The notes below the pieces were generated by a model. That model made no database searches. It saw nothing but the letters and a program-made list of their open reading frames with translations, and was not told the DNA's origin. The translations under genes were made by a program, and so were the position numbers. Positions 2,055 through 2,590 of a DNA stretch of 9,181 bases are shown here, one piece after another (positions within the stretch are counted from its first letter, which is position 1; each line of letters begins with the position of its first letter). Origin of the DNA: a virus (Duplodnaviria; Heunggongvirae; Uroviricota; Caudoviricetes); the IMG/VR virus record IMGVR_UViG_2548877011_000016. One strand, written 5' to 3'.

Positions 2055-2543
2055 TCAGTGTTTTAAGCCAGTTGGTGGCTTAGGGATGGGGAACCGATTT
2101 GAGGAGACATTAGCGGCATTGAGTTTTTTAACCTCTTTTTTCCCAATGCTGCCGATCTTGCGGTGGGTGAACTGGGCCAGCTTAAACGCGGCATCTAAAG
2201 CCAGTTTTGGATCTGTGTCCATGTTGTCAATCAGTATCCTGCCCATTGCTTTGATGGGGTCGGGTAGGCCGTTATCCATCATCTCAATGGTGTTAATTGA
2301 TGCCCGTTCCGGTGTAACTTTTTCGGTAACTTTCTTTGTAACTTTTTTCGGTTTTGTAACCTGAAAAGTTACATCAGAAGTTACAGCCTTAAGATACTTT
2401 TTCACCTCAGGATCATTGGATAGCTGCCAGCCTTTAACCCTTGCGGTCTTTTCGCTGTATCCCGCATGTATAGCGGCTTCCGTGGGATTTGCGCCCCTTG
2501 ATAACGCATCAGCAAACCGCTTTTTTTTGGTCGTTAATGCCAT
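2055..2543 (-). CDS. Phage small-terminase-like protein (TerS-like, possibly a packaging-redirecting protein), 162 aa
   Basis: ATG at 2543 is preceded by GAGG with an 8-nt spacer. N-terminus MALTTKKKRFADALSRGANPTEAAIHAGYSEKTARVKGWQLSNDPEVKKYL matches the small-terminase helix-turn-helix signature (LTxKQxxFxxEYxxxGNxTxAAIxAGYSxKTAxxxGxxLL). The track ORF 2055..2681 starts at an upstream GTG; that extension lacks an RBS and overlaps a GC-rich palindrome, so the ATG at 2543 is preferred. Confidence 0.65.
   Translation of the reverse strand: MALTTKKKRFADALSRGANPTEAAIHAGYSEKTARVKGWQLSNDPEVKKYLKAVTSDVTFQVTKPKKVTKKVTEKVTPERASINTIEMMDNGLPDPIKAMGRILIDNMDTDPKLALDAAFKLAQFTHRKIGSIGKKEVKKLNAANVSSNRFPIPKPPTGLKH
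2313..2387. repeat. Phased array of GTAAC/GTTAC pentamers with T-tract spacers inside the TerS-like gene (candidate pac or DNA-binding site)
   Basis: GTAAC at 2314, 2326, 2339 and 2356 and inverted GTTAC at 2368 and 2381 (plus strand), spaced 12-17 bp, each followed by a T-tract. In the protein this region encodes the KVT-repeat segment (TKPKKVTKKVTEKVT). Confidence 0.55.
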
Positions 2544-2566
2544 GCAAAAACCTCGTTTTGAGGGGG

Positions 2567-2590
2567 TGTAACTTTTCGTGTAACTTTTTT
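2567..2590. promoter_or_regulatory. Tandem TGTAACTTTT boxes in the leader upstream of the TerS-like gene
   Basis: TGTAACTTTTCG (2567-2578) and TGTAACTTTTTT (2579-2590), 12 bp apart, lie 24-47 nt upstream of the TerS-like start codon. They share the motif of the intragenic array. Confidence 0.45.

Follow-up and report, generated by a model that had tools for sequence, protein, structure and literature searches.

Short GTTAC words beside and inside the small-terminase gene of an Escherichia coli satellite island: candidate cosB-like elements of an HNH-type cos site

The 9,181-nucleotide stretch analysed here (IMG/VR virus record IMGVR_UViG_2548877011_000016; "the window" denotes this whole stretch) is an approximately 9-kb chromosomal island of Escherichia coli, located at tRNA-Pro between yejM and yejO. 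Its small-terminase gene, terS, carries repeated copies of a short word, AAGTTACA, both in its leader and within its coding region. We consider it probable that these words are cosB-like elements read by the helix-turn-helix (HTH) domain of the island's own TerS, and that they form the specificity part of an HNH-type cos site. This reading builds on features observed directly: the anatomy of the words, their conservation, the constraint on codon choice, the covariation of word and HTH residue, and the coincidence of the adjoining core with the ends of phage records. The first-pass annotation of this DNA had suggested that the island's own packaging recognition site may lie beside and inside terS, as a candidate pac site. 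A recognition element at this place is probable; the pac type is not upheld, because neighbouring HNH genes and record ends indicate cos, and the presumed cut (approximately 2617-2626) lies outside the segment flagged at that time (2313-2590).

Anatomy of the repeat words

The elements in question are as follows, in window coordinates.

2567-2586, minus strand: two leader words, AAAAGTTACAC and GAAAAGTTACAC, with exact AAGTTACA at 2567-2574 and 2579-2586, 12 bp apart
2366-2385, plus strand: two inverted in-gene words, AAGTTACA at 2366-2373 and 2378-2385, read on the coding strand as GTA-ACT = Val-Thr (AVTS, DVTF)
2313-2362, minus strand: four direct in-gene words, AAGTTACA at 2313-2320, AAGTTACC at 2325-2332, AAGTTACA at 2337-2344 and AGGTTACA at 2355-2362
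2595-2668, minus strand: conserved cos core, with a run of seven G (2662-2668), about 30 nt, then CTGGACACCGCCCCCCGTCTCAT..AGAAAA
2617-2626, minus strand: predicted 10-nt cohesive end, CGCCCCCCGT, from homology to the ends of the Bcep176 and Lys8385Vzw records
2055-2543, minus strand: terS, small terminase

On the plus strand the pentamer GTAAC begins at 2314, 2326, 2338, 2356, 2568 and 2580, and on the minus strand at 2368 and 2380; the eight copies counted earlier (six in the gene, of which two are inverted, and two direct ones in the leader) are thus all in place. Eight GTAAC/GTTAC pentamers within the 278 bp of 2313-2590 compare with 0.56 expected from the remainder of the window (Poisson P = 1.5e-7), and this number was reached in none of 5000 Markov simulations with local dinucleotide composition. 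The exact 8-mer AAGTTACA occurs six times in the whole window, always within 2313-2586, against an expectation of 0.26; six copies were reached in 0 of 1000 simulations. The other two word copies are one base off this 8-mer.

Within the gene, successive words lie 12, 12, 18, 12 and 12 bp apart; a gap of 188 bp follows, and then the leader pair, again spaced by 12 bp. Tandem Repeats Finder detects both 12-bp arrays, and the leader dimer (2565-2590) matches the distal in-gene dimer (2311-2336) at 85%. The leader words lie 29-41 nt 5' of the terS start codon, the first of them about 32 nt past the predicted cos cut. The copies had been described as helically phased at 12-13 bp. Their spacing is exactly 12 bp, apart from the one 18-bp step and the 188-bp gap, and since 12 bp corresponds to four codons rather than to the 10.5-bp helical repeat, "helically phased" is inaccurate. 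A 12-bp period likewise argues against simple in-phase A-tract bending.

All six in-gene copies read as Val-Thr on the coding strand, first as GTA-ACT (twice) and then as GTT-ACN (four times), and the direct words encode QVT, KKVT, KKVT and EKVT in the TerS linker; the earlier statement that the repeat imposes a KVT segment on the protein is correct. The number of direct words differs among alleles, with whole-unit deletions in P0003 and P0004. Upon inspection of the sequence, the possibility of a canonical -1 frameshift heptamer within the A-runs was dismissed because of the reading frame.

The small terminase

The start of terS is the ATG at 2543, in agreement with RefSeq and with the homologue alignment, so that 2566-2588 is truly leader. 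The 162-aa product matches Pfam Terminase_2 (PF03592) over aa 3-57 with 42.5 bits (cut-off 26.1), and PHROG 641, "terminase small subunit", over its full length (aa 1-158, E = 3e-44), which bears out the TerS-like label given by the first-pass annotation. AlphaFold predicts a confident HTH domain at aa 1-56 (predicted local distance difference test, pLDDT, 79-86); pLDDT falls below 50 across aa 57-84, and aa 96-146 form a predicted helical C-terminal domain. The VT repeat, AVTSDVTFQVTKPKKVTKKVTEKVTP, occupies aa 53-78 and falls mostly within this low-confidence linker, which is predicted to be disordered. The closest solved structures are SF6/SPP1-type small terminases (3zqp, 2cmp) and the nonameric "Pam5" TerS, with the HTH alone matching, and weakly. 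Two relatives belong to bona fide phage modules, namely L086 from Hafnia (our locus handles begin with L), with the order HNH-TerS-TerL-protease/capsid-portal, and L259, with the order TerS-49aa-TerL; the island gene is thus orthologous to working phage TerS. Judged by its Pfam and PHROG matches, it is a genuine small terminase.

Directly after terS, a 53-aa open reading frame (ORF) at 1882-2043 on the minus strand has 49-53-aa homologues conserved across relatives (L259:533-682, L260:552-704, L089:1701-1856 and L090:2651-2803), with the pattern MSE..DP.DVL..IM.D......RL.AAA.LMPYFH....EEDDD. It matches the mid-part of the TerS family itself (phrog_641 positions 89-126, E = 8e-7) and resembles TerS oligomerisation helices plus an acidic tail. 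This mini-ORF is present in satellites and in one phage context (L259, between TerS and TerL).

A conserved probable cos core and predicted genome ends

Upstream of the leader words, the island carries a core that is common to the HNH-TerS gaps of Shiga toxin (Stx)-converting prophages from Shiga-toxin-producing E. coli (STEC) and of Citrobacter, Hafnia, Salmonella and Burkholderia phages. The STEC lambdoid prophages with a closely matching gap include the Stx1a-/Stx2c-converting 2851, BP-4795, 1717 and YYZ-2008. In an ungapped alignment of the cores anchored on GACACC, one layout is common to all of the phages and satellites: a G-run, about 30 nt, CTGGACACCGC(G)CCCCCTCTCACGCACAGAAAAAAT, and the first word. 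The first word starts 30-35 nt after CTCAC, or the predicted end, in 21 of the 22 distinct loci with both core and TerS, phages and satellites together; the 22nd, L189, has a mutated GTTGAC at the first-word position.

The probable position of the cut is suggested by phage records. The linear Bcep176 record has the identical 10 nt, CGCACGTTCC, at both ends, immediately before CTCACGC and inside the homologous core, with HNH at one record end and TerS at the other. The record of the STEC-type phage Lys8385Vzw ends in ..GGACACCGCCCCCCCT and begins with CTCACGCAGAGAAAAAATTCC.., the break falling between ..CGCCCCCCCT and CTCACGC.., and the vB_E175 record starts 2 nt from the Bcep176 boundary. By homology, the left end of packaged island DNA is predicted at 2616, running towards terS. 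An HNH gene adjoins terS in the phage relatives L002, L003, L086 and Bcep176; the island has none and would depend on a helper for this function. Adjacent HNH genes together with record ends inside the conserved core point to cos rather than headful packaging. Two studies from 2014, by Kala and by Quiles-Puchalt, reportedly concern packaging of the cos type. In a passage of 10.1101/2022.09.08.507074 that cites them (Kala 2014, Quiles-Puchalt 2014), HNH is described as needed besides TerS-TerL to start packaging in phages of the HNH kind.

Several copies of the core vary in ways worth recording. G-run length among copies ranges from 7 to 11 G. In an island variant on a metagenome contig (L173; ERZ1673734 NODE-1866), the approximately 30 nt between the G-run and GACACC, homologous to window positions 2633-2661, are swapped for the STEC-prophage sequence TATCATCCGGCGAAAAAAACGATCGCC, with flanks and GTTAC words of the island type. 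This patch indicates that cos cores have been exchanged between islands and prophages while the specificity element was kept. On the other side of the core, a 53-aa coiled-coil-like ORF (2671-2832, minus strand) stops right at the G-run; small homologous ORFs ending in ..LISLLGE occupy the position of the phage HNH gene in L088 and L090.

Word type covaries with one HTH residue

Sister clades with the same core carry another word. The terS genes of STEC Stx-converting prophages have five GTTAAC copies in a long leader and no in-gene word; their TerS is 47% identical to that of the island and has an acidic, unrelated linker. Citrobacter-type phages have GTTAAC-GT-GTTAAC across the start codon, and some of these loci (L006, L189 and L192) also have GTT-AAC (Val-Asn) in the linker region. 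L096 combines two leader GTTAAC with one in-gene Val-Asn copy, and the Burkholderia phages and L097 have a split word, GTTAA-N5-TTAAC.

Across the 22 distinct loci, word type tracks one position of the HTH motif KG-x-QL, which is Ser in the GTTAAC clades and Trp, Cys or Tyr in the GTTAC clade (W39 in the island TerS). GTTAC goes with KG[W/C]QL (Tyr in L090), GTTAAC with [KQ]GS[QR]L, and the split word with AAGSRL. As indirect support, this covariation of word, clade and HTH residue suggests that the word is read sequence-specifically by the TerS HTH.

Another reader of the words is unlikely. The words could be DNA sites for helper TerL or HNH, a late-gene transcription factor or a host nucleoid protein, or perhaps a promoter or operator of the packaging operon. 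The fixed distance of the first word from the cut would also suit a nuclease-positioning element, and this word stands just upstream of the terS ribosome-binding site. Against such readers, word type follows the TerS clade and its HTH residue, and satellites carry word and terS without terL. Moreover, a scan of 2250-2900 found nothing like a sigma-70-type promoter, with terminator-like matches at chance level, and six copies within a coding region are hard to explain as an operator.

Probable selection on DNA rather than on protein

The TerS family is small. The DNA comparison covered nine lineages (the window, L084, L261, L086, L088, L090, L259, L260 and L096), whose TerS proteins share 51-62% identity with island TerS or with each other; all except L096 constitute the GTTAC clade. 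Scanning genome contigs with the family alignment yielded only generic Terminase_2 relatives from unrelated bacteria and no close members. The pac-site proposal had implied that the repeats would persist at synonymous sites of homologues, and in these nine lineages they are neither absent nor synonymously scrambled.

The leader of every GTTAC-clade member holds at least one AAAAGTTACAC. In the linker, the Val-Thr pairs of this clade are invariably GTA-ACT or GTT-ACA/C, with GTA-ACT pairs at the equivalent place in L086, L088, L090, L259 and L260, and the order of words, inverted copies before direct ones, is kept throughout. When lineages are compared in pairs, codons of the VT repeat agree in 52 of 60 cases, and those of other conserved residues in 413 of 832 (Fisher P = 1e-8, from pairs that are not independent). 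Codon choice is narrower than Val-Thr requires: repeat Val codons are GTT or GTA in 21/21 cases (13/20 elsewhere) and repeat Thr codons ACA or ACT in 19/21 (13/42 elsewhere), a shift by which the conserved word grows to AAGTTACA on either strand. In a set of 12 near-identical copies of the island, every pentamer is free of substitutions, the variable sites being too few to inform.

These patterns have to be weighed against the quite unlikely alternative that a Lys/Val/Thr-rich flexible linker, for instance a non-specific DNA-contacting arm that joins the HTH to the oligomerisation domain, was born by slippage and selected as protein, making the in-gene words a by-product and leaving the leader word unrelated. 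The (K/E)KVT units are indeed tandem, vary by whole units (P0003 and P0004) and are detected as a 12-bp tandem repeat, and VT dipeptides are conserved at the protein level throughout the family. Besides the narrow codon choice, this account meets the difficulty that slippage could not homogenise the inverted GTA-ACT copies with the direct ones, yet both give the identical 8-mer on opposite strands. It also leaves aside that the leader, which is non-coding, has the identical 8- to 11-mer at a constant distance from the cos core. Furthermore, the shift of the linker from Val-Thr to Val-Asn alongside the leader word in some GTTAAC loci is what selection on DNA predicts and is hard to obtain from selection on protein. 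Constraint on the linker as protein appears weak, given its predicted disorder, its variation in copy number and the unrelated acidic linker of STEC TerS. Taken together, the codon comparisons favour selection at the DNA level as the force that keeps the in-gene words and shapes the TerS linker sequence.

Relatives within the clade differ in their surroundings. The E. coli island L084, which encodes P0005, has a 242-nt leader (L084:5760-6000) with seven GTTAC/GTAAC words, including the perfect inverted pair AAAAGTTACACGATGTAACTTTT, and one GTTAAC; upstream lies an HNH-like gene of its own, which shares 73% identity with the HNH of the STEC prophage. In L261, a close relative, the leader is short and contains one word. 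L088:1-7993 and L090:1-5760 are GTTAC-type satellites (terS, a 50-aa ORF and a capsid-like gene) that directly adjoin either a 5'-truncated TerL, which from residue 103 onwards shares 72% identity with STEC TerL, or genes for protease-capsid and portal. They have the appearance of "helper-embedded" satellites that entered the late genes of a prophage, of the type described in 10.1101/2022.07.18.500453.

Proposed mechanism and the question of the helper

On the coding strand, the proposed site would run from the cos core with its 10-nt cohesive end (2617-2626) through about 32 nt to the leader words (2567-2586), past the terS start (2543) and, after about 160 nt, to the six in-gene words (2313-2385). 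After helper induction, oligomers of island TerS would bind the words. Bound TerS would then position helper-supplied TerL, along with HNH, on the adjacent core; the core would be cut, and packaging would proceed towards terS. The leader words have the best support of all the sites, since they occur universally and at a fixed position, and the leader pair is proposed as the primary cosB-like TerS recognition site. The in-gene copies lie about 190 bp beyond them and may serve adjacent HTH domains of a TerS ring as auxiliary sites or may act through looping; their role is the least certain, since some GTTAAC-type phages lack an in-gene copy. As the island word GTTAC is one base off the GTTAAC of STEC HNH-type prophages, the island may mark its own DNA with a specificity orthogonal to those phages.

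Several sequence features are points in favour of an STEC HNH-type prophage as the helper. The island has exactly the cut-site 20-mer of the STEC prophages, GACACCGCCCCCCGTCTCAT, and the core exchange seen in L173 involved the same prophages. Some island-bearing STEC genomes also hold HNH-type prophages (2-3 matching places per record). No GTTAC-type TerS was found among 50,697 phage records, in which the best matches were STEC Stx-phage TerS at 47%. The corresponding TerL proteins, 59-64% identical, count against an STEC prophage helper. Two further candidate arguments were set aside. The island TerS was considered as a chimera of a GTTAC-type DNA-binding half and an STEC-type TerL-binding half; its C-domain identity is 0.59 to STEC and 0.60 to Hafnia, and its tail is of the GTTAC-clade kind. 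Identification of the helper through overall cos-core identity was not decisive, at 0.76 for the STEC prophage versus 0.78 for L088.

The observations that weigh against the proposed cosB-like role are best taken together. For the island, we infer every functional step, from the binding of TerS and the part played by the in-gene copies to the choice of helper. Three features keep the assignment of a helper tentative: the C-domain of TerS does not resemble STEC more than Hafnia, the tail of the island protein (..GLKH) matches the GTTAC clade and differs from that of STEC TerS (..LVVNN..), and ungapped identity of the island core is as high to satellite L088 as to the STEC prophage. The Lys8385Vzw record is labelled circular, so that its start point is suggestive and no proof of a physical end. 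The pooled P value of 1e-8 overstates independence, because the lineages are few and share ancestry. Finally, the STEC prophages, L004 and L007 lack any in-gene word; these copies may thus be dispensable, or a by-product kept for another reason.

A further alternative retains the words as TerS sites and removes the switch in specificity: the island would be a plain copy of the cos and terS of its cognate helper, an unsampled GTTAC-type E. coli phage. GTTAC-type TerS proteins with matching words do serve complete phages (L086 from Hafnia, and L259), and the tail of island TerS fits such an origin. Nevertheless, we regard this as improbable, given the lack of any GTTAC-type TerS in the phage records searched, the cut-site 20-mer shared with STEC prophages, the core that L173 exchanged with them, and the occurrence of the island in STEC genomes, some of which also hold those prophages.

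Least credible of all, and very improbable, is action of the words in mRNA, where inverted copies would pair with direct or leader copies to regulate terS translation or stability: 25-nt inverted repeats do link the leader with the first in-gene dimer (84% complementary) as well as in-gene copies with each other, and the predicted fold of the 305-nt transcript, which contains a hairpin of in-gene words, is slightly more stable than those of shuffled sequences (z = -2.3). Against this, the z-score is modest, the minimum-energy fold has no leader-gene pairing, and the DNA pattern is retained in relatives that have one leader word and only a few copies in the gene. Rfam has no family match in the word region, and nothing in RNA pairing would call for a first word at a constant distance from the cos core.

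Comparison with known packaging systems

The closest functional parallel to the cosB-like arrangement proposed here is the cosB of lambda-like phages. Both lambda and N15 have R sequences on the upstream side of terS, some 50 bp from the left end (PMC9026076); R3 spans bp 50-65 in lambda, and in N15, where R3 is the sole R sequence, terS begins at bp 89 (PMC9026076). The island likewise has short repeats between the predicted cos nick and the terS start, and a few tens of bp separate the first of them from the predicted left end. In the lambda-like system, the HTH of TerS recognises the R sequences, and these anchor TerL for nicking (PMC9026076), as the island words may do. Repeat number varies in both settings: N15 has one and lambda three (R3-I1-R2-R1), while L086 has one leader word, the island two and the STEC prophages five. 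Unlike lambda, the island has a TerS of the Terminase_2/SPP1 G1P type, not gpNu1, its phage relatives are HNH-associated, its words are only about 8-11 bp long, and copies continue inside terS. The element would thus be cosB-like in function and lie outside the lambda system.

Among satellites, phage-inducible chromosomal islands (PICIs) offer a second parallel. EcCICFT073 keeps the phage cosN and has its own cosB (PMC6739421). Like cos PICIs of this type (Fillol-Salom 2018, 2019), the island pairs a phage-like cos core with its own sequence at the cosB position, beside a DNA-binding packaging gene (PMC6739421). The Rpp of EcCICFT073 is no terminase and forms a heterodimer with helper TerS, whereas the present island encodes a full TerS and its core matches HNH-type cos phages.

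In Staphylococcus aureus pathogenicity islands (SaPIs) of the pac type, packaging is redirected by a satellite TerS that recognises a satellite site, whereas SaPIbov5 makes use of cos helpers that depend on HNH and has a gene for Ccm, a homologue of capsid proteins (10.1101/2022.09.08.507074, PMC8569155). The island shares terS with the former and a divergent capsid homologue with the latter. Pac SaPIs package by headful, and SaPIbov5 has no terS and leaves the helper cos unchanged; the island mixes both strategies, with its own TerS, a cos core and its own words.

SPP1 G1P belongs to the same TerS family as the island protein, and that of its close relative SF6 is among the nearest solved structures. 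SPP1 G1P binds two separated sets of short repeats (pacL and pacR), one of them inside gene 1. By analogy, these separated pac sites resemble the leader and in-gene clusters of the island, which lie about 190 bp apart. P22 and Sf6 also have their pac sites within or close to terS. SPP1, P22 and Sf6 differ in packaging by headful, without HNH and with imprecise ends; in the island, both word clusters lie on one side of a predicted cohesive-end cut.

Gene content of the island

The island was found in 220 of 5426 complete E. coli genomes (approximately 4%), mostly in Shiga-toxin-producing lineages; NZ_CP032801 and NZ_CP027331 are examples of STEC records that contain it. Its genes all lie on the minus strand and, besides terS and several small ORFs, include the following.

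7940-9181, minus strand: P4-type integrase
Island gene, minus strand: DUF4222 protein
3608-5008, minus strand: RepA/AAA_25 helicase, followed by probable CTCCCCAC iterons
969-1895, minus strand: divergent capsid homologue, 308 aa

With an integrase at its end, genes in a single direction, a replication module with a probable adjacent origin, small size, and virion genes limited to terS and the capsid homologue, the island has the layout of a Gram-negative PICI; the gene layout also bears out the satellite-type island of the first-pass annotation. Five exact CTCCCCAC copies lie at 3416-3604 (plus-strand coordinates), just downstream of the RepA-family helicase gene, and a sixth at 4429, against 0.2 expected in the whole window; they are probably iterons of the island replication origin. 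A candidate for the AlpA-type activator/excisionase of PICIs is the ORF at 7237-7443, which RefSeq annotates as an HTH regulator and which has no Pfam match at E <= 0.01. Some E. coli PICIs are known to encode TerS (Fillol-Salom et al. 2018, PMC6092414). In that study, two marked TerS-encoding E. coli PICIs did not transfer upon prophage induction, and PICI helpers were identified only for EcCICFT073 and PmCI172 (PMC6092414).

The 308-aa capsid-family protein aligns only with the capsid half (approximately 291-625) of 645-aa STEC and Hafnia protease-capsid fusions, at 22-25% identity, and is 53% identical to a 281-aa homologue from island L084. By position and type, it resembles Ccm, the size-redirection protein of SaPIbov5. 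Two RNAs exceed the Rfam gathering score on the minus strand, a C4 antisense RNA at 6217-6304 (73.8 bits) and the isrK Hfq-binding RNA at 6326-6402 (66 bits). In this region, RefSeq annotates frameshifted Icd-like and truncated Ash-family pseudogenes, which together have the appearance of a P4/P1-like immunity-type module. A 12-13-bp tandem repeat, TAAACCGTATAAC, with 2.3 copies (672-700), occupies part of the gap that separates the end of yejO from the capsid-like gene, close to where the island boundary is expected.

Implications

How TerS-encoding satellite islands of Gram-negative bacteria choose DNA for packaging has not been worked out so far, the islands studied being those that use Rpp. 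The present locus offers a compact candidate recognition code, consisting of an 8-mer word, a one-base difference from the word of co-resident Stx prophages, and one candidate HTH residue. Relative to the cosB of lambda and N15, Rpp-type PICIs, SaPI TerS and SaPIbov5, what is new is a satellite TerS of the Terminase_2 type beside an HNH-type cos core, together with a very short repeated word that is one base off that of related phages and is overprinted on the codons of the TerS linker.

More tentatively, enterobacterial HNH-type cos phages and their satellites might share a switchable word code, in which GTTAAC, GTTAC or the split GTTAA..TTAAC stands at a fixed distance from the cut and is paired with one HTH residue (Ser versus Trp/Cys/Tyr). 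Satellites would then mark their own DNA by a one-base change while sharing the core of the helper, and the extra copies would overprint terS such that the TerS linker, with its Val-Thr or Val-Asn repeats, is dictated by the DNA target of TerS itself. If confirmed, the recognition code would explain how the island is mobilised alongside Stx phages and would provide a handle for engineering orthogonal cos packaging. It would also represent a clean case of a DNA-binding site constraining the coding sequence of its own reader protein.

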